Below are positions 15,945-61,370 of a DNA stretch of 64,000 bases, piece by piece (the stretch's first letter is position 1; each line of letters starts with the position of its first letter). Origin of the DNA: an uncultured Calditrichaceae bacterium (lineage in GTDB: Bacteria; Zhuqueibacterota; Zhuqueibacteria; Oceanimicrobiales; Oceanimicrobiaceae); contig CAYVXE010000003.1 in assembly GCA_964455375.1 (NCBI GenBank), forward strand, positions 2,522 to 66,521, in the 5' to 3' direction. A program made the translations under genes and the position numbers. A model generated the notes under the pieces. That model ran no database searches. It was not told the origin of the DNA and saw nothing but the letters and a program-made list of their open reading frames with translations.

Positions 15945-16958
15945 TTATTTGAGGGTTGGACGAAAATGATCAAAGCCCTGGGCCGCCAAAGGTGCTGCTC
16001 TTTCCCCGTCAATCAGCATGACTCCTTTATCCAGCGACGTTATTTTTCCAATATTCGAACATTGAAGATTGAACACTGTTTTCAATTCTCGAATAATAGA
16101 TGTGCTTTCTGACTTGGGAGCGGTAAATAACAGCTCAAAATCTTCACCGCCATAAAGAGCATAGCTCAGTGGTTTGGCTCCCTGCATCTCCGCAATGTTT
16201 CTCGCTGCCGCAGAAAGCGGAATTTTATCGGCGTAAAGCCGTGCCCCCACATCGCTGCTTTGACAAACATGTCCGATTTCCGAAGCCACACCGTCACTTA
16301 CATCGATCATCGCGTGAATATGAAAGTTTTCCACCAAATGCCGCGCTTCGCGCACGCGGGGTTGCGGGGTTCTATGCTGTTTCACGGCCTCAGGAAATTT
16401 TTCAAGCAAAGACGCCCGCTGTAATTTCAGAATCTCCAGACCGGCAATTGAATTGCCGGGGCTACCGGTGACTAAAACAGCATCTTCTTCCCGGGCGCCA
16501 GACCTTAAAACAAGACGCTCCCGTTCGACGCGTCCGTAAATGGTTAATGAAAAGAACAATCGATCCGGCGTGCGTGTGGTATCGCCGCCAATAATATCAA
16601 CACTAAACTGTTGGGCGATCCCCGACATGCCGCGGTAAAAGTCATCCACGGCGCCAACGGTAAGGTCATCGCGCAGAGCAACGGTCAACACAGCATATTC
16701 AGGTATGCCGCCCATTGCCGCGATATCGCTTAAGTTGGCCGCAAGCAGGCGCCAACCCACGTCGTGAAAAGACATATATTTTAGGTCGAAGTGAACACCT
16801 TCTACAAAAGCATCGGTGGTGAGCAGAGATAATTGTTCGTGTGCTTTAAAGACCGCGGCATCATCATTGATGCCGACCATGAGTTCTGAGGAATGGGATG
16901 CGAGCTTTTTTTTCAAACGACGAATGAGGCCAAACTCGCCCAGATCTTTTAGAATCAT
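15945..16958 (-). CDS. thiL: Thiamine-monophosphate kinase
   Basis: 337 aa. LGEFGLIRRL start and the DDAAV and GGDTT motifs of the AIR-synthase-related/PurM-like fold typical of ThiL. Confidence 0.85.
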   Translation of the reverse strand: MILKDLGEFGLIRRLKKKLASHSSELMVGINDDAAVFKAHEQLSLLTTDAFVEGVHFDLKYMSFHDVGWRLLAANLSDIAAMGGIPEYAVLTVALRDDLTVGAVDDFYRGMSGIAQQFSVDIIGGDTTRTPDRLFFSLTIYGRVERERLVLRSGAREEDAVLVTGSPGNSIAGLEILKLQRASLLEKFPEAVKQHRTPQPRVREARHLVENFHIHAMIDVSDGVASEIGHVCQSSDVGARLYADKIPLSAAARNIAEMQGAKPLSYALYGGEDFELLFTAPKSESTSIIRELKTVFNLQCSNIGKITSLDKGVMLIDGERAAPLAAQGFDHFRPTLK

Positions 16959-34926: not shown

Positions 34927-36732
34927 TTAACGTCTTCTTTTGTAGTCGTATTTTTGTGTTCGCTTTTTTGTCTTTTGTTTTTTTGCACGTTTCAATTCGT
35001 CAACACTTCTGGTTTTATAAGGAATCATTTTTTCCTGGACGATCGAAAACAGATTAAATAAGGCGTAATATAAATTTAATCCAGAAGGAAAAGAGTTAAA
35101 CATAAGCGTCAAAAAAATCGGCATAAAATAAACCATCGCCTTTTGTTTTGGATCTTTCATGGTAATTTTCTGTTGGATAAACATGGTAACACCCATAAAC
35201 ACCGGTAAAATGTTGACGGTGTTTCCATACAGAGGTATTGTAAATGGTAAAACAGCAACGGTATCGGGAAGCGAGAGATCTTTTATCCACCAAATAAACG
35301 AGGCCCCTCGCAACTCGATAGTCGTCCTGAAAATGTTAAACAGGGCAATCAGAAGCGGCATCTGTAAAAGCATCGGTATACACCCACCCAAGGGGTTGAT
35401 TCCATACTCCTTATACAGTTTCATGGTCTCTTTCTGCTTTTTCTGAGCATCGTCTTTGTATTTCTCGTTCATTTCCTGCATGAGCGGTTGCAGAGACTGC
35501 ATTTCCTTCATGGACTGGTAACTTTTCCGAGTTAAAGGAAACAACAAGAGTTTAATCAAAATGGAGAAAACAATAATGACCCATCCGTAGTTTGGAATTA
35601 CTTTATGCAGGAGCGTAAAGCTCCATAAAATAAATTTTGCGAAAGGACGGAAAATGGCCATCCCAAATGACATCATCTTTTCCAAACCAACATTGTACGA
35701 TTTAATAATATCGTAGTCCAGCGGCCCGAGAAAGACCTGGTAGCTGTCAAGGATATCATTTGAATTTTCAAAGGGCATTTTCAGTTTGAAGGAATATTTC
35801 TCCAATGGTGTCTTTTGCCCAACATCTATTTCTTCCCCTTTAAAAGAAACCGATTGACCTTTTTTTGTTCGGGGTATGAGTGCCAGTGCGAAATATTTTG
35901 TCCGAATTGCTACCCAGTCTGTTGGATTGTCCCACTCCTTTGGATCAAACGTATCCTTTACTTTGAAGGTCTCCAAATTTCCTTGAAGCGCGTATGCGTT
36001 CGCATTTTTCATATCCATGTTAATATCTGGCTCTGTTGTTTGCAAACCCGAGGTCCAGGAAATAAAGTATGAGTAACCCCCGACAATTTTTTTAAGGTTT
36101 TTTAGCTCGACATCAAAATCAAAGGAGTAACTGCCCGTATGAAATGTGTATGTTTTAATAATCTCCTGTTTGCCGTTCAGTTTGAGGGTAAAAATTAATT
36201 TGTCCGATTGGCCATCCCTCTTGAGTAAGACGTCCGCTTTATTCACGGTAAACAAATATGGACTCGTATCAAGCGTGTCGTGTGCCGTGGGTATTAAAAC
36301 ACCTAAATTGCCGATACCGTTTTCTCCAACCATTTGAACCATGGAACTGTCCCGCATGGAGTATTTTTTTAATGTCCAGGAAATGAGTGATGCTCCTTCG
36401 GTGCTAAACACTGCCCGATAAAGGTCAGTATCAACGATAACGTTTTCACCTTTTCCTGATTGTAGAACAAAATTGTTTTCTGCAGTAGAAACAGCACTGC
36501 TCGGTGGTATTCCTTTTGCTTGTTCTTTTTTGACCTGAACGGGTTTCTCGGGAATTCCAATATCCTCTTTACTTTGTGAGGTAGCTCTTCTAGGTGTGAG
36601 CTCTGTTTCCTGACTTTGTGTTGTTTCGGGTGGAGGCGGCAGAAAATTGGTTTTATAAAAATCTGTTTGGATAAGAATTAGTATTAAACCAATAATCACG
36701 AATGCCAGGATTGTTTTCTTGTCAAAGTCCAT
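34927..36732 (-). CDS. yidC: Membrane protein insertase YidC
   Basis: 601 aa. N-terminal TM, large periplasmic domain and C-terminal 5-TM 60-kDa inner-membrane insertase core. Conserved rnpA-yidD-yidC-mnmE order. Confidence 0.9.
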   Translation of the reverse strand: MDFDKKTILAFVIIGLILILIQTDFYKTNFLPPPPETTQSQETELTPRRATSQSKEDIGIPEKPVQVKKEQAKGIPPSSAVSTAENNFVLQSGKGENVIVDTDLYRAVFSTEGASLISWTLKKYSMRDSSMVQMVGENGIGNLGVLIPTAHDTLDTSPYLFTVNKADVLLKRDGQSDKLIFTLKLNGKQEIIKTYTFHTGSYSFDFDVELKNLKKIVGGYSYFISWTSGLQTTEPDINMDMKNANAYALQGNLETFKVKDTFDPKEWDNPTDWVAIRTKYFALALIPRTKKGQSVSFKGEEIDVGQKTPLEKYSFKLKMPFENSNDILDSYQVFLGPLDYDIIKSYNVGLEKMMSFGMAIFRPFAKFILWSFTLLHKVIPNYGWVIIVFSILIKLLLFPLTRKSYQSMKEMQSLQPLMQEMNEKYKDDAQKKQKETMKLYKEYGINPLGGCIPMLLQMPLLIALFNIFRTTIELRGASFIWWIKDLSLPDTVAVLPFTIPLYGNTVNILPVFMGVTMFIQQKITMKDPKQKAMVYFMPIFLTLMFNSFPSGLNLYYALFNLFSIVQEKMIPYKTRSVDELKRAKKQKTKKRTQKYDYKRRR

Positions 36733-36768
36733 GAATTTAAATATACCCTATTTATTAAATAACTAATT

Positions 36769-36978
36769 CTAGTTTAATGGATCATACCCCCCTGGATGAA
36801 ACGGATGGCACTTTGAGAGCCTCGTTAATCCCTTAACGGAACCGCGAATTAACCCATACTTTTCAATTGCCTGTAAAGTATATTCCGAACAAGTAGGATA
36901 AAAACGGCAAGACGGTGGAAAAAACGGCGAGATCGCTTTCTGGTAAAGCCGAATGATGCCAATTCCAATACGTTTCAT
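36769..36978 (-). CDS. yidD: Membrane protein insertion efficiency factor YidD
   Basis: 69 aa. [25 protein letters not shown] is the YidD/haemolytic-domain signature. Confidence 0.85.
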
Positions 36979-36984
36979 AATAGG

Positions 36985-37323
36985 TTATTTCTCTAATCTG
37001 ATTAATAAGTCTCCATACTCGACTTTTAATCTTTCAAAGGTAACTTGATTAAAACCCTTCCTGGCCATAAGAAGAATCATTTTATTTTCAGGCAGACGAT
37101 TGTTATCTCTTCTGAATAACTCCCGAAGTCTCCTTTTTGCTCTGTTTCGCTTAACTGCACCAGATATTTTTTTTGAAACGGCAAATCCAACCTTTTTTTC
37201 TTCAGCATCTAATGCAATTAATAAAATATGGTTTGAATGGTATCGTTTTCCGTGAGTAAACATCTTGCTAAAGAGTAACGGACTTTTAATGATCAGCCGC
37301 TTTGATAAACGGTGTTTTTTCAC
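36985..37323 (-). CDS. rnpA: Ribonuclease P protein component
   Basis: 112 aa basic protein lying between rpmH and yidD. RnpA-like KR-rich motif. Confidence 0.8.
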   Translation of the reverse strand: MKKHRLSKRLIIKSPLLFSKMFTHGKRYHSNHILLIALDAEEKKVGFAVSKKISGAVKRNRAKRRLRELFRRDNNRLPENKMILLMARKGFNQVTFERLKVEYGDLLIRLEK

Positions 37324-37340
37324 AAAATTGCTTTGGTGGG

Positions 37341-37484
37341 TTACCTGTCACTTACTGTTAAACTTTTTCTTCCTTTAGCCCTCCGGGAACTCAAAACAGC
37401 ACGTCCGGACTTAGTTTTCATTCTTGCCCTGAAACCGTGTTTGTTCACTTTCTTTCTATTGCTTGGCTGAAATGTTCTTTTCAT
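37341..37484 (-). CDS. rpmH: 50S ribosomal protein L34 (not in ORF track because it is under 60 aa)
   Basis: Manual translation of the minus strand gives [47 protein letters not shown] (47 aa). This is the canonical L34 MKRTFQPS...HGFR.RM.T..GR.VL..RR.KGR motif, placed directly upstream of rnpA. Confidence 0.85.
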
Positions 37485-37499
37485 GGCATGCCTTTTAAT

Positions 37500-37940
37500 T
37501 TATATATCCTAAATTCACTTATATTCAAAAAAAACTGTAAAACATATTAATTATCCTGGTAAAAGTCAAGTTATTTCTCAATACCATATTCATCATTTAT
37601 TCAAAATATTTTACCTTGACATTAAACGTGTTATTCTTAAATTTCCAACATCCCCCCTAACCGAAATCTGTATTTAAAAAATGTGGATAATGTATTAATT
37701 TTTACTTTTAAAATAGAAATAACCTGTGTATAAAATAAGTCTTTTACATTCATTATCGTTCAATAGGCATACAAATAGCTTGTATCTTTTCTGTTTTTAT
37801 TTATTTTACTCTTTGCTTTTGTTTTGTGGATAACTTGTGAGTAAGTTTCGTATGTTTGTCAATTTTTTAAAAAAATGGGTTTTTTCTGTTAATACTTTAT
37901 TTTCAGTTAAACTTTTAACATAAATATAGGTTTTTAAATT
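37500..37940. promoter_or_regulatory. AT-rich rpmH/dnaA divergent intergenic region with DnaA boxes (origin-proximal box cluster / dnaA promoter)
   Basis: Perfect TGTGGATAA boxes at 37682-37690 and 37825-37833, plus degenerate boxes (for example TTATCCTGG near 37553). Over 70% AT. The minus-to-plus strand switch occurs here. Confidence 0.7.
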
Positions 37941-39290
37941 ATGTCTGATCCGTGTGTTTCAACTTGGAATGACTGTTTATCTATTATTAAGGACAGTATT
38001 AATCCACAGAGTTACACAACTTGGTTTAAACCGATAACACCGCTAAATCTAAGAGACGAAAAATTGACCGTCGAAGTTCCAAGTCAGTTCTTTTATGAAT
38101 GGCTGGAAGGTCATTATAGTAATTTAATTAACAAGGCATTGCTTCAGGTTCTTGGTGATAGTGCAGAACTCACGTATTCCATCTCTGAAAAAAATAATGG
38201 TGCTTTTTACGATGTCCCATCAATTGATAGAAAAAAAACCAACAATAAATATCAAATTAACAGCAATTTAATGGACCGGTATATTTTTGATACATTTGTT
38301 GAGGGTTCAAATAATCAGTTTGCACGTGCAGCGGCCATGGCGGTTGCTGAATCACCCGGGAAAACAACCTTCAATCCATTGGTTCTATACGGTGGCGTTG
38401 GTCTCGGAAAAACACATCTTATTCATGCAATTGGTCATTATGCCCTTTCCAATAAGACCGCCAGTAATGTTTTATATGTGGACAGTGAAAAATTTACCAT
38501 TGAATTTATTAATTCCATTCAGAATAATAAGACCACCCAATTCAGTTCCATTTACAGAAATGTGGATTTGCTCTTAGTAGATGACATCCAATTCTTCAAT
38601 AATAAAGAAAGAACACAAGAAGAATTTTTTCATACATTTAATGCTCTATACAATGCCGGTAAACAAATTGTTCTATCCTCAGACCGTCCACCAAAAGAGT
38701 TAGATGGCGTGGAAGATAGGTTAATTTCACGATTTCAGTGGGGACTCGTTGCGGATATTCAACCCCCTGATTTTGAAACTCGAATCGCTATTCTTCAGCA
38801 AAAAGCAGATCAGACAGGTGTGGATATGCCTGGTGAAATAATTGAATTCATCGCAGCAAATGTGACATCTAACATTCGGGAGATGGAAGGGGCTCTTATT
38901 CGCTTGCTGGCATTTTCCTCCTTAAATGGAAAGGACTGTACGCTTTCAGACGCAAAAGATGTGCTTAAAAACCTGAGTTTGCGTAAAAAGAAAAAAATAC
39001 TCATTGAGGAAATACAAAGAACAATCTCTGATCACTTTGATATCGAAGATGATCTTCTTAGAGCAAAAACCAGAAAAAAAGAAATTGTCTACATTAGGCA
39101 AGTTGCCATGTATCTCTGTAAAATTCTAACCAAACATTCTCTAAAAACCATCGGGTTGCATTTTGGAGGTCGGGATCATAGCACGGTTATTCATGCAATA
39201 CAAATTATCGAAAAACTAGTCAAAAACGATGAGAAAACCAACGATGAAATAAGTGAGTTAAGAAAGAAAATTGAACTGGCATGTATGTAA
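37941..39290 (+). CDS. dnaA: Chromosomal replication initiator DnaA
   Basis: 449 aa. AAA+ Walker A GGVGLGKTHL, sensor motifs, and C-terminal DnaA-box-binding HTH (YLCKILTKHSLKTIGLHFGGRDHSTVIHA). Confidence 0.95.
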   Translation: MSDPCVSTWNDCLSIIKDSINPQSYTTWFKPITPLNLRDEKLTVEVPSQFFYEWLEGHYSNLINKALLQVLGDSAELTYSISEKNNGAFYDVPSIDRKKTNNKYQINSNLMDRYIFDTFVEGSNNQFARAAAMAVAESPGKTTFNPLVLYGGVGLGKTHLIHAIGHYALSNKTASNVLYVDSEKFTIEFINSIQNNKTTQFSSIYRNVDLLLVDDIQFFNNKERTQEEFFHTFNALYNAGKQIVLSSDRPPKELDGVEDRLISRFQWGLVADIQPPDFETRIAILQQKADQTGVDMPGEIIEFIAANVTSNIREMEGALIRLLAFSSLNGKDCTLSDAKDVLKNLSLRKKKKILIEEIQRTISDHFDIEDDLLRAKTRKKEIVYIRQVAMYLCKILTKHSLKTIGLHFGGRDHSTVIHAIQIIEKLVKNDEKTNDEISELRKKIELACM

Positions 39291-39592
39291 TCCAGTTATT
39301 CACATTCCGCTGTGGATAACATGTTATTTTAACTTTATAATTTGTGGATAATAAAAGAAGGATTAAGTACCCACTACTTTATACACAACAAAGGATATAT
39401 AATTAACAGTTCATCAACATAATTAAAAATGACTTTTCTAAAAATGAACGCCAAAAAATCAATTAGATGCGATACTTATTACGAAAGTTATCCACTTATC
39501 CACAGTCTCTACTACTACTAGTATTTAAAATTATTCTTGAATAATAGCTATTTATTTTATATCTTTTTAAATTATAAAAATTCGAGGTTTTT
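39291..39592. promoter_or_regulatory. dnaA-dnaN intergenic DnaA-box cluster with AT-rich unwinding-element-like tract (probable oriC core)
   Basis: Perfect boxes at 39311-39319, 39343-39351 and 39496-39504, plus an overlapping one-mismatch box at 39488-39496. A highly AT-rich tract lies at 39520-39590, next to dnaN. Confidence 0.7.
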
Positions 39593-40711
39593 ATGAAATT
39601 TAAAGTAAATAAAAAAGTTTTTTTCCAGGCAATTCAAAATATAATTGGTGTGGTGCCGGTCAAAACCACAATCCCTATTTTAGGAAATATTTTGCTTGAC
39701 TTGAAAGGTAACGCACTTATGCTTACCGGCACTGATTTAGAAGTTTCGATTTCGACTGAAATAGATGTTCTGGGTGAAAAAGATGGAGCCGTGGCGATAC
39801 CTGCTAAAATTTTGTTTGAAATAGTTAGGGAACTACCGGACATTCCATTGGAAGTTTCCTGTGACGAAGAGTTTAAAATTACGCTCAACACAGAAAAGGG
39901 TTATTATAAACTATCCGGTGAAACCAAAGATGATTTTCCAAAAATATCTGTTGAAGAAACAAAGGGTTCTTTCACCATCGAGACGGAACGTTTTCAAAGA
40001 ATGATAAATAATACCATTTTTGCTGTATCAACGGATGAATTGCGAACAACATTGATGGGAGTGTTTTTGAAAGTGATGGAGAATGAACTTAGATTAGTTT
40101 CCACTGATGGTCACCGCCTCGTAAAAATTGTCGATAATAACTTTCCTGCGGACGGGTTAGATAGTGAGACGATAATCCCAACCAAAGCTTTGAATTTACT
40201 GGTAAAAAATTTGCAGAATGTCCAGAAAATAAAAATTAACCTCAGTGATGATCATATAGTCTTTGAGTTGGGTAACACAACTATTTTCAGTAAAAGCATT
40301 GAGGGACAGTTTCCGAATTATGAACGCGTTATTCCCAGCGATAATGACAAAAGTTTGGTTGTGAACAGGGAACTTTTAAGTTCGTCCGTGAAACGAGTTG
40401 CTATTTTTTCAAATTCAATTACTCACCAAATTAGACTTTCTATTTCACAAAGAAGCATGCTGATCAAATCAGAGGACATTGAATTTGGCGGTGAGGCTCA
40501 GGAAAGCATCGATATTGATTACAGAGATGAATCATTAGATGTTGGTTATAATGCAAACTATCTTCTTGATATTTTAAGACATCTGGATACAGACGAAGTT
40601 GAAATTAAAGTTAAAGATTCGGTTAGCGCTGGAATCATTTATCCATCTCAGCAAAAAGAAAACGAAGAGATGCTTATGCTTCTAATGCCCATACGACTCA
40701 ACGAAGATTAA
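39593..40711 (+). CDS. dnaN: DNA polymerase III beta sliding clamp
   Basis: 372 aa. Three-domain clamp pattern (MKFKVNKKVF...; LMPIRL C-terminus). Position after dnaA. Confidence 0.95.
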   Translation: MKFKVNKKVFFQAIQNIIGVVPVKTTIPILGNILLDLKGNALMLTGTDLEVSISTEIDVLGEKDGAVAIPAKILFEIVRELPDIPLEVSCDEEFKITLNTEKGYYKLSGETKDDFPKISVEETKGSFTIETERFQRMINNTIFAVSTDELRTTLMGVFLKVMENELRLVSTDGHRLVKIVDNNFPADGLDSETIIPTKALNLLVKNLQNVQKIKINLSDDHIVFELGNTTIFSKSIEGQFPNYERVIPSDNDKSLVVNRELLSSSVKRVAIFSNSITHQIRLSISQRSMLIKSEDIEFGGEAQESIDIDYRDESLDVGYNANYLLDILRHLDTDEVEIKVKDSVSAGIIYPSQQKENEEMLMLLMPIRLNED

Positions 40712-51537: not shown

Positions 51538-52506
51538 ATGTCCTCTTCTTCCGTTTCGCGTCAAAACCATCTCGTTGCTTTGCTGGCATTCACGACTGTC
51601 CTCTTTGCTTCGTGTACCCGGTCCGTCACCGGCGATGCTTCAATCGTAATGAACTGGCAGGCCGTGGATTCGCTCAACACAAAATTACCCGATGGAATAC
51701 GGGTCTATTCCGGTTCCAACGAGCATTTGCCGTTGAAAGCGTGGTATGTGCGTATTCAAGAGTCCCGGCCAGAGATTTTTACAAAAGTATTGCTGTCGGA
51801 TGATTCCAGAGACAATCGTGAGACCGTCTCCAGTTTTGCCCATGATGAAAACGCCGTCGTCGCAATCAACGCCGGCTATTTTGTAATGGGACAAACGCCA
51901 GCGCGACATGCCGGTTTACTGGTTTGTGATGGCAAAATAATGGCTTCTGCAACGCGATCTGTTATGCGAAAAGCGGTCCGGTATCCCGCAGCCCGCTCAG
52001 CGATCGGCTTTACTGAAGACGATAGAATTGATATCAAGTGGGTGCGCAATCGTCACGATACGCTTTTCGCCTGGTCCGAACCACTTAAAAACAGGCAAAA
52101 CAAACCGAAAAAGTTAGATTTTAAGCGAGCGATCCTGTGGCAGGTGAACGATGCCGTTTCTGCCGGCCCCATGTTAATTTCCAAAGGTAAGGTTCATGTG
52201 GCGACAGACGAGGAAGTGTTCTTCGGGTCTGCCATTCCCAATGTCCATCCGCGGAGCGCCGCGGGAATTACCGCCAATGGCGAGCTTATTTTAATGGCTG
52301 TGGATGGTCGTCAACCGGAGAGCCGCGGCGTTAACCTGGAAGAACTTGCTGATTTAATGCTCGGAGTTGGCTCTGTGTGGGCGCTGAACTTAGATGGTGG
52401 CGGATCCACGACTCTAATCGTGAACGGTCTTCGCCTGAATCGTCCGTCGGGTGGGGACACCGAACGAGAAGTCATGTCGGTGCTGGCGACATTTGTCAGA
52501 AAATAG
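51538..52506 (+). CDS. Phosphodiester glycosidase family lipoprotein (DUF2233-like)
   Basis: 322 aa. Lipobox LFASC and motifs NAGYF...LNLDGGGSTTL shared with the 'uncovering enzyme' (phosphodiester alpha-GlcNAcase) family. Confidence 0.65.
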   Translation: MSSSSVSRQNHLVALLAFTTVLFASCTRSVTGDASIVMNWQAVDSLNTKLPDGIRVYSGSNEHLPLKAWYVRIQESRPEIFTKVLLSDDSRDNRETVSSFAHDENAVVAINAGYFVMGQTPARHAGLLVCDGKIMASATRSVMRKAVRYPAARSAIGFTEDDRIDIKWVRNRHDTLFAWSEPLKNRQNKPKKLDFKRAILWQVNDAVSAGPMLISKGKVHVATDEEVFFGSAIPNVHPRSAAGITANGELILMAVDGRQPESRGVNLEELADLMLGVGSVWALNLDGGGSTTLIVNGLRLNRPSGGDTEREVMSVLATFVRK

Positions 52507-52547
52507 CAAGGCTCAGAGAAAACATGTAGCACCGAAAGGGATCTTGA

Positions 52548-52892
52548 ATGAAAAAAGTAGATTGGTTTTATTTTCGCAACGGCTGAACGAGCTGTAAGAG
52601 AGCGCAAGAGTTTCTTGCCTTGAATCATGTGGACATCAATACGACAGTCAGCGCCTCAAAGAAATTGCAGATTGAGGATGCAAAGAAACTCCTTAGGGAG
52701 AAGGAGCGGCTGTATGTTGCGAAGGGGAAAAAGATCAGACGTTTTAATTTGCAGGAAGACATTGCGACTCCGGAAGAGTTGGTTACATTTCTTTTAGGTC
52801 CTACGGGAAACTTGCGTGCCCCCACGATCCAGGTCGGTCGTACATTACTCGTAGGTTTCAACCAGGCAATTTATGAAGAAGTTTTCAGGTAA
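52548..52892 (+). CDS. Spx/ArsC-family thioredoxin-fold protein with in-frame TGA (candidate selenocysteine, U-T-S-C motif)
   Basis: ATG at 52548 is in frame with the TTG-start ORF at 52620 in the track, with a single TGA at 52584-52586. Translation MKKVDWFYFRNG-U-TSCKRAQEFLALNHVDIN... aligns without gaps to Spx [20 protein letters not shown], so the TGA falls exactly on the first Cys of CxxC. The C-terminus LRAPTIQVGRTLLVGFNQAIYEEVF matches the family's LRRPIIID..LQVGYNEDEI. Full length is 114 aa, which fits the family. Confidence 0.6.
52604..52618 (+). promoter_or_regulatory. Small hairpin 18 nt downstream of the in-frame UGA (candidate bacterial SECIS-like element)
   Basis: GCAAG-aguuu-CUUGC, a 5-bp stem with a G/U-containing apical loop. 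It is shorter than the E. coli fdhF SECIS, so only suggestive. Confidence 0.3.
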
Positions 52893-53739
52893 GGCGTCTC
52901 AAATAAATATACAAAAGAAAAGATGGTTACAGGTGCTGGTCTTTTCTGTTTGCATCGTTGTGATCGTTCTCTTTTTGGTTTCAAACACGCTTAAAATTCA
53001 AACGGTTAATTTACAGCAGTCATCCTTTTCAAACGTCTTGCGGGGCAAGCGGGCAATTTTACTAAGCGACTTGCATCTGAGCGCGGGAAACAAGACGTCT
53101 GTTTCACAATTATTGTTCGCTATCGAAAAGATAAAACCGGACATTATTTTCCTGGTGGGTGATTTTGTTCCCTGGACCTCGACAAAAGAGGATTACAGGA
53201 ATGTTTTCCATTTTCTAAAAGAACTATCTGCTCCGCTTGGTGTGTACGCGGTTTTGGGTGATTCGGATTATCAGCGCAGCAGGGAGAGTTGTACCTTTTG
53301 CCACAGTCAGAATATACGCAAACCGACACCGCTAAATCAGGTTAAATTTATCCGGGACAGTTTTATCGATCTGAACCTGAACGGTCGTTTCTTGCGCATT
53401 GCTGGTGTTGACAGCCGTGAGGGGCTGAGACCGCGACTGCAAAATGTTCCACCGCTTATCGTTCGCACACCGGTCATCTTGCTTAGCCATACATCGACGG
53501 TATATCATAAAATTCCGAAAGGCAGGAATGTACTCGTTCTGTCTGGTGATACCCATGGTGGCCAGGTTTATTTGCCGACTTTTCTATGGAAACTTTGGGG
53601 TCGTAAACCGGACCCGGAGCACATGTACGGTTATTTCAAAGATGGTGAGAAAAGTTTGTATGTTACCAGTGGCACAGGTACATCCGATTTCCCGTTTCGT
53701 TTTGGGGTGCGGCCTGAAATAGCCGTGTTTAAATTTTAG
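52873..53739 (+). CDS. Membrane-anchored metallophosphoesterase (calcineurin-like, YkuE/YaeI-type)
   Basis: 288 aa. N-terminal TM, then LLSDLHLS, GDFVPW, LGDSDY and GDTHGGQV metal-ligand motifs. Confidence 0.75.
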   Translation: MKKFSGKASQINIQKKRWLQVLVFSVCIVVIVLFLVSNTLKIQTVNLQQSSFSNVLRGKRAILLSDLHLSAGNKTSVSQLLFAIEKIKPDIIFLVGDFVPWTSTKEDYRNVFHFLKELSAPLGVYAVLGDSDYQRSRESCTFCHSQNIRKPTPLNQVKFIRDSFIDLNLNGRFLRIAGVDSREGLRPRLQNVPPLIVRTPVILLSHTSTVYHKIPKGRNVLVLSGDTHGGQVYLPTFLWKLWGRKPDPEHMYGYFKDGEKSLYVTSGTGTSDFPFRFGVRPEIAVFKF

Positions 53740-56103: not shown

Positions 56104-56997
56104 TTAGAAATATATCACGCCCTGATTGTCGGCTGTGAAAATTCGACATACCGCTGGAATATTCAAGGCGCGTGCTTTTTGCTGCCAGGCGTCCTGCAAA
56201 GATGTTCCGTCATCTGCGGTAAAGGCCAGGATCGTTGATCCAGACCCGCTGACACAGACTCCGAGTGCTTTCGATTCGACGGCGACCCCTGCAAATGCGT
56301 CGTAGCCGGGGATGAGTTGTTTGCGATACGGTTGGTGTATTTTATCCTGCATGGCGATGGATAACGCTTCGTAATTTTTACTCATGAACGCATGTGTGAG
56401 AAGAGCGCTGCGTTGAATGTTGAAAACCGCGTCTTTGTGGCTCACCGAACCGGGTAAAATCTGCCGTGCCGCTTTGGTGGAAATGGTCACGTCGGGAATT
56501 AACGCGACCATCGTGAGACTGGGTTCTACGGGAAACGCTTTTGTCACCGGACGGCCTTTCTCAAGGCAATTTATCGTGAAGCCGCCAAACAGTGACGCCG
56601 CGGCATTTTCCGGATGGCCTTCAAGTTCGTTTGCCAGGGAAAGCAGGTACTCTTTTTTTGTGTTTAGGCCGGTGAGTTTTGCGGCACAAGCCAATCCTGC
56701 AATCGTTGCTGCGCCACTGCTTCCAAGACCACGGGACAAAGGAATCTCATTTTTGACTGTGATGTTCAAGGCAGGCAGCATTTGGTTGACATGAAGGAAA
56801 AACTTTTTTACTGCCAGATAAACAAGATTTGTTTCGTCGCGGGGAATTTCATCGGCGCCTTCACCGGAAACCTCGATGTGCAGGTCTGTGGGGCTGACGT
56901 CCATTTTTACGGTCAGGTACATCTGTAGCGCCAGACCGAAGGTGTCGAATCCAGAACCGAGATTCGATGTGGATGCGGGAACCCGGACGTTAACCAT
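56104..56997 (-). CDS. thrB: Homoserine kinase
   Basis: The track ORF (420 aa) has a 123-aa N-terminal extension overlapping pyrE. Homology starts at MVNVRVPASTSNLGSGFDTFGLAL (GHMP kinase motif PxxxNLGxGFD) with ATG at 56997, and contains PLSRGLGSSGA. Confidence 0.8.
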   Translation of the reverse strand: MVNVRVPASTSNLGSGFDTFGLALQMYLTVKMDVSPTDLHIEVSGEGADEIPRDETNLVYLAVKKFFLHVNQMLPALNITVKNEIPLSRGLGSSGAATIAGLACAAKLTGLNTKKEYLLSLANELEGHPENAAASLFGGFTINCLEKGRPVTKAFPVEPSLTMVALIPDVTISTKAARQILPGSVSHKDAVFNIQRSALLTHAFMSKNYEALSIAMQDKIHQPYRKQLIPGYDAFAGVAVESKALGVCVSGSGSTILAFTADDGTSLQDAWQQKARALNIPAVCRIFTADNQGVIYF

Positions 56998-57574
56998 TTT
57001 TTTGCAGGCCCCTGCTTCCCGGCTTGTGTGCCGGGCCGAGATTCTTAACGGCCGGATCATCCGGTTGGAATGTTTCAATCTGCAACTGCATGACCGAAAA
57101 AAAGTCAAGTCCGAACTGTGCGTTCCCCCCGCTGCGATCGACGATGCAGCCGACACCCAAGGGATTGGCGCCAAGTGAATGCACCAGTTCGATGACTTCT
57201 TTGACCGAACCGCCGGTGGTAATGACGTCCTCCACCACGAGAATCGTTTCATCCTTTTGAATGGCAAAGTTTCTGCGTAAAGCCATACGCCCGTTTTCTC
57301 TTTCGGCAAAGATCGCGCGAACCCCCAGCGCGCGGGCAACTTCATGCGCAACGATGATGCCGCCAATTGCAGGCGCGATCACCGACTGAACGTTTCTGTT
57401 TTGATAATGATCGGCGATTTCAGAGCAGAGCTTTTCGGCATACTGCGGATGCTGCAGGACTTTGGCGCACTGGAAATATTGAGTGCTGTGCAATCCGGAC
57501 GTTAAAATGAAATGGCCATTTAGCAGCGCACCGGTTTGTTGAAAAATAGTTAAAACGTCGTCGTTGGTCATCAT
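56990..57574 (-). CDS. pyrE: Orotate phosphoribosyltransferase
   Basis: 194 aa. PRPP-binding motif ILVVEDVITTGGS and an N-terminus typical of PyrE. Confidence 0.9.
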   Translation of the reverse strand: MMTNDDVLTIFQQTGALLNGHFILTSGLHSTQYFQCAKVLQHPQYAEKLCSEIADHYQNRNVQSVIAPAIGGIIVAHEVARALGVRAIFAERENGRMALRRNFAIQKDETILVVEDVITTGGSVKEVIELVHSLGANPLGVGCIVDRSGGNAQFGLDFFSVMQLQIETFQPDDPAVKNLGPAHKPGSRGLQKNG

Positions 57575-60899: not shown

Positions 60900-61260
60900 A
60901 TTTTTGCTCACTAAGAAGAAAACAGGTAGTGTGAATAAAGTGTGGATAACTTTTAAGAGATGGCTATATTTTCTTTATATCTTAAAATAACGCAAAATTC
61001 TCAAGAAACTGCGAATTTGGGCGAATAATACGGATTTTTTGGCGACAGATAAAACTTCAGCCGTTTTATGGTTGTCATAAGCTTTAAATAATTAATGGTT
61101 TACGTAGATTTATTTGTTGGGATTCAGGTGAGGTGTTCCGGCTAGAACCTTTTATTGCTTTAAGTATTAATAATTGACAACAGATATTGACTTGCATGTC
61201 TCTTAGGCCACAGTGGAATGTTATCCACAAAAAAATGTGGATAACTTGTTGAGGCTAAGG
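60900..61260. promoter_or_regulatory. Distal cluster of DnaA boxes in an AT-rich intergenic region (about 21 kb from dnaA)
   Basis: Perfect TGTGGATAA at 60941-60949, one-mismatch TGTGAATAA at 60930-60938, and an inverted perfect pair TTATCCACA(61221-61229)-aaaaaa-TGTGGATAA(61236-61244). Confidence 0.65.
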
Positions 61261-61370
61261 AAAAGTGATAGTGAGTTTAGATGCTTGTTTTACAACGCAA
61301 TTAGCCGGAAAGATGATGGAGATTGTGTATAAAATATGATTTGAAGGCTTTGGTAAGTGGCAAATAATCG

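Follow-up and report, generated by a model that had tools for sequence, protein, structure and literature searches.

The gene at positions 52548–52892 of the forward strand of the window—by which we mean the whole 64,000-nucleotide stretch of DNA analysed here—very probably encodes a genuine selenoprotein that belongs to the ArsC/Spx superfamily, has a thioredoxin fold and carries an in-frame UGA that would be decoded as selenocysteine (Sec), as judged from the sequence and from its comparison with homologs. Within the frame of 114 codons a single TGA occurs, at 52584–52586. The features on which the argument draws are the following:

52535–52541, forward strand: putative Shine–Dalgarno-like, purine-rich stretch AAAGGGA, 6 nt 5' of the ATG, as read from the sequence
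52548–52892, forward strand: predicted selenoprotein coding sequence of the ArsC/Spx superfamily, family NF041106; 114 codons, UGA-13 among them, followed by the stop codon
52548–52550, forward strand: ATG start, 12 codons 5' of the UGA, with an in-frame stop directly upstream
52584–52586, forward strand: in-frame UGA, predicted to be read as Sec (U13) of a U-T-S-C redox motif; TGA in 82 of 83 loci, in the Cys column of the family and aligned with Spx Cys10
52593–52595, forward strand: TGT codon of Cys16, the putative resolving Cys of the U-x-x-C motif; present in all 81 Sec forms
52602–52620, forward strand: SECIS-like hairpin with a core stem of 52604–52609 paired to 52613–52618, an apical GUU loop at 52610–52612, a single mismatch and, further out, a single G-U pair
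52797–52826, forward strand: codons of the signature G-P-T-G-N-L-R-A-P-T (residues 84–93), in invariant or near-invariant columns that align with the Spx stretch G-L-L-R-R-P-I

The sole open reading frame that a mechanical caller offers at this place is, as the initial annotation had stated, one of 90 aa with a TTG start (52620–52892); translation likewise bore out its statement that the frame stays open back to the ATG at 52548 save for the TGA. Read from that ATG, the protein begins with MKKVDWFYFRNG and continues beyond the TGA as TSCKRAQEFL, which places the U-T-S-C motif at the TGA; over a longer stretch the translation reads MKKVDWFYFRNG, the TGA, and then TSCKRAQEFLALNH. The product would comprise 113 residues plus Sec, the stop codon being at 52890–52892. 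Since the codon that precedes it is a stop, the ATG at 52548 is the only start in frame upstream of the TGA, and an ATG is found 12–14 codons before the TGA in most of the 83 loci considered below. Ahead of the TTG at 52620 we found no stretch comparable to AAAGGGA.

For the database searches of the product the UGA was read as Cys. The protein search returned 606 relatives, the best 120 of which were inspected for length: about 100 of these were fragments of 77–104 aa that start shortly after the U column, precisely the truncation by automated callers that the initial annotation had foreseen. Those database homologs that were full-length carried Cys in the U column (P0005–P0012, P0014, P0015 and P0030) or, in three ENA entries (P0002–P0004, alongside which the site L087:640–642 is listed), Trp. 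The nearest database relative is 92% identical to the window protein, and the best one among the species-representative genomes 57%. When one genome per species was scanned, at least 592 loci encoding a relative were obtained, the best 80 of which we analysed; these came from Gammaproteobacteria, Planctomycetota, Acidobacteriota, Myxococcota, Bdellovibrionota, KSB1, Zixibacteria, Ignavibacteriales, Actinomycetota and others, and 79 of those best 80 had the Sec form. With the addition of the window itself and of two contigs from a close relative, they make up the 83 loci in which the codon was read directly from the DNA: at the U position, 82 have TGA and the remaining one, L026, has TGC. The DNA of L026 and of L083–L086 indeed shows the TGC codon, so that Cys-containing orthologs are documented at this position both as database proteins and as DNA.

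The conservation extends to both sides of the TGA. The pattern of a W-x-Y-x-R-x-G strand followed by U-x-x-C, which in the window reads DWFYFRNG-U-TSC, is common to the 83 loci; among the 81 Sec forms the Trp at –7, the Tyr at –5 and the Arg at –3 relative to the U are each present in 81 of 81, and the Gly at –1 in 78 of 81. The ten codons 5' of the TGA are thus coding. Downstream of the UGA, C16 and a Phe are likewise found in 81 of 81 sequences, and in the DNA alignment the bases T10 and G11 of the Cys16 codon (columns 10–12) are invariant. These data bear on the possibility that the true product be the 90-aa protein from the TTG at 52620, or one from some other downstream start, in which circumstance the upstream 72 nt of the present frame would be an untranslated leader and the protein would lack the redox motif. 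Such a short product is what the ORF caller delivers, here as well as for about 100 among the 120 best homologs in the databases, and the TTG of the window is replaced in the close relative L081 by GTG, still a start codon; but the 12 codons before and the 11 after the TGA are conserved as protein across phyla, with the W, Y, R and C16 in every one of the 81 sequences, and the match to the family model NF041106 begins as early as residue 4. The downstream starts, moreover, vary in position—whence database calls of 77 to 104 aa—and the thioredoxin fold, as far as a structure model can tell, would be incomplete without its strand 1 and helix 1. We therefore regard a short product as extremely unlikely, and the peptide preceding the TGA, by being conserved, indicates that the orthologs do not start downstream of it.

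If, alternatively, the TGA marked a pseudogene or had arisen through an error in sequencing or assembly, a Cys codon, TGC or TGT, would have been changed into TGA, for which one base change suffices; Cys forms do exist in the family, and the Sec machinery was not seen within the window. To this explanation we attach next to no credence. The relatives, in which a TGC or TGT codon had been envisaged as one outcome, carry TGA at this very position, as 82 of the 83 independent loci show; the frame is otherwise undisrupted, and the hairpin described below is conserved in the Sec forms and confined to them. The TGA is also present in the close relative (L081, and also L082), which comes from two other samples, has the same gene order and shares 96% DNA identity with the window across the gene. 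Between L081 and the window the TGA and the 40 nt that follow it are identical, the 36 bases before the TGA differ by one change, a conservative one from Val to Ile, and the upstream intergenic stretch differs by one indel and several substitutions. A sequencing error private to the window is excluded by this second occurrence of the TGA in L081 and L082, the pair being nevertheless too close for that comparison to be decisive. The reading of the codon as Sec, occupying the first of the two redox positions in U-x-x-C, as the initial annotation had proposed, accordingly finds agreement in the codon counts, in the NF041106 match and in the alignment with Spx Cys10.

The hairpin GCAAG-AGUUU-CUUGC at 52604–52618, to which attention had also been drawn at the outset, is present as described, with an A-U closing pair that leaves a GUU loop. 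When the columns are numbered from the U of the UGA, RNAfold extends the hairpin from G21-C35 through A26-U30, again with a GUU loop, and adds two or three outer pairs past a one-base bulge or mismatch; the whole lies 18–37 nt 3' of the UGA, the apical G-U-U being 24–26 nt after it. Considered alone, the hairpin of the window is at chance level: its z was +0.62 over nt 52584–52650 against dinucleotide shuffles, and –0.72 against synonymous-codon resamples, 20% of which fold as well. It is the comparative data, and only these, that render it significant.

Those data derive from the 54 nt counted from the TGA, over which the 81 Sec forms align without a gap and in which G27, U28 and U29 are invariant; column 27, a wobble position, is G in 81 of 81 sequences across codons for Lys, Glu, Arg and Gly. 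RNAalifold, run on the 81 pooled Sec forms, predicted no pairs, which lack of a pooled consensus is explained by the use of two pairing registers. To the register i+j=57 belong 55 sequences, mostly from Gammaproteobacteria, with the peptide A-S-K-F-L-E-A and a GUUY loop; to the register i+j=56 belong 24, the window among them, mostly from Planctomycetota and Acidobacteriota, with the peptide A-Q-E/G-F-L-A and a GUU loop. Two further sequences, L043 (3028–3081) and L045 (3034–3087), fit neither register well and yet keep the apical GUU; these are the Sec forms from Zixibacteria and Ignavibacteriales, and L045 has a run of three pairs only. Each sequence was assigned to a class by its best register, by virtue of which the percentages paired are somewhat inflated: in class 56 (n = 24) 83.9% of the cells were paired, as against 36–68% in slid controls, with compensatory change in three pairs (for example, A-U to G-C in 7 sequences); and in class 57 (n = 55) 88.2% were paired, as against 19–47%, with compensatory change in four pairs (A-U to G-C in 11 sequences, C-G to U-A in 3). 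In neither class did any of 500 shuffles reach the covariation score. Upon synonymous resampling across the family, the native minimum free energy averaged –9.3 kcal/mol versus –5.4 kcal/mol for the resamples, with a mean z of –1.47. The five Cys-form genes (L026 and L083–L086), for their part, are without the hairpin, and their columns 27–29 are not conserved. The proposal of a SECIS-like hairpin at the right distance from the UGA thus draws its support from the family, through the invariant GUU together with the pairing and covariation. Rfam returned no SECIS or other relevant family, either for the whole window at gathering thresholds or for 52400–53000 at E ≤ 10. From the alignments it appears that the RNA signal dictates amino acids of helix 1, each of the two peptides being tied to its own register.

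A third alternative is that the UGA is decoded otherwise than as Sec, whether through near-cognate read-through with Trp or Cys or through a reassigned code in which TGA specifies Trp or Gly. The ENA entries P0002–P0004, which give Trp at the homologous codon, would speak for it, as would the outcome of the search for the Sec machinery, in which no selA, selB, selD or tRNA-Sec, and indeed no tRNA at all, was found within the 64-kb window. Of the 51 ORFs with a length of 150 aa or more, that scan took in 50, the remaining one being nested on the opposite strand within the PdxA gene. Two ORFs of 465 and 626 aa, similar in size to SelA and SelB, are MnmE and MnmG, and an ORF with AIRS and AIRS_C domains (15945–16958, reverse strand) was rejected as SelD in favour of ThiL, the thiamine-phosphate kinase (TIGR01379, 315.7 against a cutoff of 184; SelD models below cutoff); the remaining scanned ORFs, unrelated to the Sec machinery, comprise housekeeping genes from around the replication origin as well as others. 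Against these points, TGA terminates 17 of the 50 long ORFs in the window, conserved genes among them, and when every in-frame TGA flanked on either side by an open frame was considered throughout the 64 kb, no second selenoprotein candidate emerged; since TGA is an ordinary stop and there is no other plausible in-frame TGA in the window, a reassigned code is excluded. As to the deposited Trp, P0002 shows at the DNA level a plain TGA with a SECIS-type hairpin behind it, and its locus, read under the standard code, does not give the deposited protein. Simple read-through, finally, would leave the SelB-type hairpin with its invariant apical GUU unexplained. We consider a decoding other than Sec very unlikely on these grounds, and Sec insertion remains our preferred reading, under which the source organism is probably a user of selenocysteine, as suggested by the gene itself.

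The surroundings of the gene are uneventful. A NAGPA-domain gene precedes it by 41 nt, and it shares 20 nt with a metallophosphoesterase gene; a scan for promoters and terminators around it gave background levels, with no such signal between these genes. No recurrent neighbour was found across 81 loci, whose 395 neighbouring ORFs fell into 283 clusters, the largest represented in 6 loci; nor were there ars genes (arsR, arsB, ACR3) near the window gene. Elsewhere in the window, positions 36000–40000 look like a chromosomal replication origin, with a change of sign in the GC skew and a GC content down to 0.349: perfect TTATCCACA DnaA boxes flank dnaA (37941–39290) at 37682–37833 and 39296–39504, and the gene order is rsmG-mnmG-mnmE-yidC / dnaA-dnaN-recF-gyrB-gyrA. 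A third cluster of DnaA boxes, three perfect and two with one mismatch, lies at 60930–61332, some 21 kb from dnaA, within a gap of 569 nt between a sodium:dicarboxylate symporter gene and a DUF92 gene. At 56104–57574 on the reverse strand, a GHMP-kinase ORF of 420 aa with a TTG start overlaps a phosphoribosyltransferase ORF of 194 aa by about 375 nt; since the former is called as 297 aa in L081, it is probably over-extended at its 5' end.

Regarding the family to which the product belongs, the NCBIfam model NF041106, "ArsC family (seleno)protein", matched with a score of 122.9 bits, its cutoff being 85 (E = 7.8e-36), residues 4–109 aligning to profile positions 1–107. The threshold of the Pfam ArsC model PF03960 was passed marginally (25.8 bits; gathering score, 24). 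The models for Spx and MgsR failed (TIGR01617, 38.3 against 75.05; NF002459, 28.7 against 123; NF009210, 21.2 against 159), by which measure the protein is not Spx itself. When the family profile was compared with the PDB, the putative arsenate reductase 2m46 came out best (E = 3e-9), with Spx (1z3e, 6ghb and 7f75) at about 6e-7 and YffB (1rw1) at 2e-4. The profile alignment puts the U position opposite Cys10 of the C10-T-S-C13 motif of Spx (1z3e, 6ghb), which agrees with the original placement of the U at the Spx/ArsC active-site Cys, and C16 opposite Spx C13; further along, the L-R-A-P of the window protein stands opposite the Spx L-R-R-P. The earlier designation "Spx/ArsC-family" therefore holds at the level of the superfamily, for which NF041106, PF03960 and the PDB profile search speak, and falls with respect to Spx proper, whose cutoffs were not reached.

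The structure model was made for P0008, a Cys-form homolog 46% identical to the window protein, and had a pLDDT of 91.6 and a pTM of 0.84. In it the first Cys comes after strand 1 and directly before helix 1, and the second Cys sits in the first helical turn; residues 54–67, in the middle region, form a beta-hairpin. A Foldseek search with this model listed YffB, Spx and ArsC-like structures first (TM of about 0.52–0.57), the best being YffB 1rw1, and then glutaredoxins and NrdH. Superposed on YffB, Spx and ArsC, the model gives a TM of about 0.55 and an rmsd of 6–8 Å. The modelling suggests that the insert of the subfamily differs from that of the solved relatives. From the profile and model matches taken together, the protein is a thioredoxin-fold protein of the ArsC/Spx superfamily, where it represents a separate subfamily distinct from Spx.

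In the mechanism that we propose, translation would initiate at the ATG at 52548, and the hairpin at 52602–52620 would, in this genome, recruit through its apical G-U-U the elongation factor SelB with Sec-tRNA(Sec) to the UGA at 52584, upon which selenocysteine would be inserted in place of termination. The mature protein would most likely cycle between the selenol/thiol and the selenenylsulfide (Se-S) states, and might serve as a small thiol oxidoreductase of the glutaredoxin or Spx type or as a redox sensor. Spx and MgsR are redox-sensing regulators of Firmicutes that bind RNA polymerase. That the U-x-x-C protein be likewise an Spx-like selenium redox sensor, whose selenenylsulfide switch acts on a partner such as RNA polymerase, is a speculation that we judge improbable.

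As far as annotation is concerned, the correct entry would be a coding sequence at 52548–52892 with the Sec codon at 52584, and neither a 90-aa fragment nor a pseudogene. The novelty that the initial annotation had implied is not borne out, since an NCBIfam model names the family and a literature on it has existed since 2006–2008. With the family already curated and published, what had been recognised is therefore the correct call of an ordinary and commonly mis-annotated gene: a good annotation correction and not a discovery, and a new sequence in a known family. Mis-annotation of the ArsC-like selenoprotein family is widespread, most of its public gene calls being truncated in the same manner and some carrying Trp. 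What role an abundant, stand-alone selenoprotein of this kind fulfils is a question for the whole family and not for a single locus.

Among known systems, the SECIS of the E. coli fdhF type is resembled by the hairpin of the present family, in which G27 is invariant and the loop begins 24 nt after the UGA. The family hairpin is, in contrast, much shorter, with 6–9 pairs and, for the copy in the window, an energy of about –8 kcal/mol; no bulged U was recognised in it, two pairing registers are in use across lineages, and Rfam has no match for it.

To YffB and the glutaredoxin-coupled ArsC (1rw1, 3rdw, 3f0i and 2m46) the protein is linked by a Pfam ArsC domain just above threshold, whereas classical ArsC has a single catalytic Cys in a C-x-x-S motif and the window protein a U-x-x-C. 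Glutaredoxin-coupled ArsC is also marked by a triad of conserved arginines; the only Arg after the motif that is invariant in the family alignments is R90. Most of the PDB chains named ArsC were weaker than Spx in the profile search, the top one, 2m46, having been deposited as a putative arsenate reductase. With Spx (1z3e, 6ghb and 7f75) the protein shares fold and superfamily, U13-x-x-C16 standing opposite C10-x-x-C13, and the P0008 Cys-form model matches it at a TM of about 0.53–0.56; it differs from Spx in being some 18 residues shorter, in having Sec for Cys, and in failing the family cutoffs.

Like the thioredoxin-, glutaredoxin-, DsbA- and peroxiredoxin-like UxxC selenoproteins, the window protein would carry Sec where the CxxC motif that opens helix 1 has its N-terminal Cys, and with these other thioredoxin-fold selenoproteins it has in common that Cys-form homologs coexist and that the SECIS is situated in the coding region just past the UGA (PMC1794560; PMC2398784). 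Unlike them, it stands on the ArsC/Spx branch, and is without a signal peptide or a fused domain.

ArsC-like selenoproteins themselves were reported in 2006 by Zhang et al. from Desulfotalea and Desulfuromonas (PMC1794560); in 2008 the selenoproteome of the Global Ocean Sampling listed an "Arsenate reductase 2, cd03032, UxxC" with 42 Sec sequences and 238 Cys homologs (PMC2398784), and a review of 2022 an "Arsenate reductase-like protein, COG1393, UxxC" (PMC9312934). In the NCBI annotation pipeline, NF041106 is a dedicated model that names the family a selenoprotein; we equate it with the published ArsC-like families through the shared domain assignment and motif, and not through a comparison of accessions. 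The window protein has all the marks of NF041106—the N-terminal U-x-x-C, the occurrence of Sec and Cys forms, a length of about 115 aa, and the GPTGNLRAPT signature—and departs from that family in no essential respect, the sequence from the window being itself a new one.
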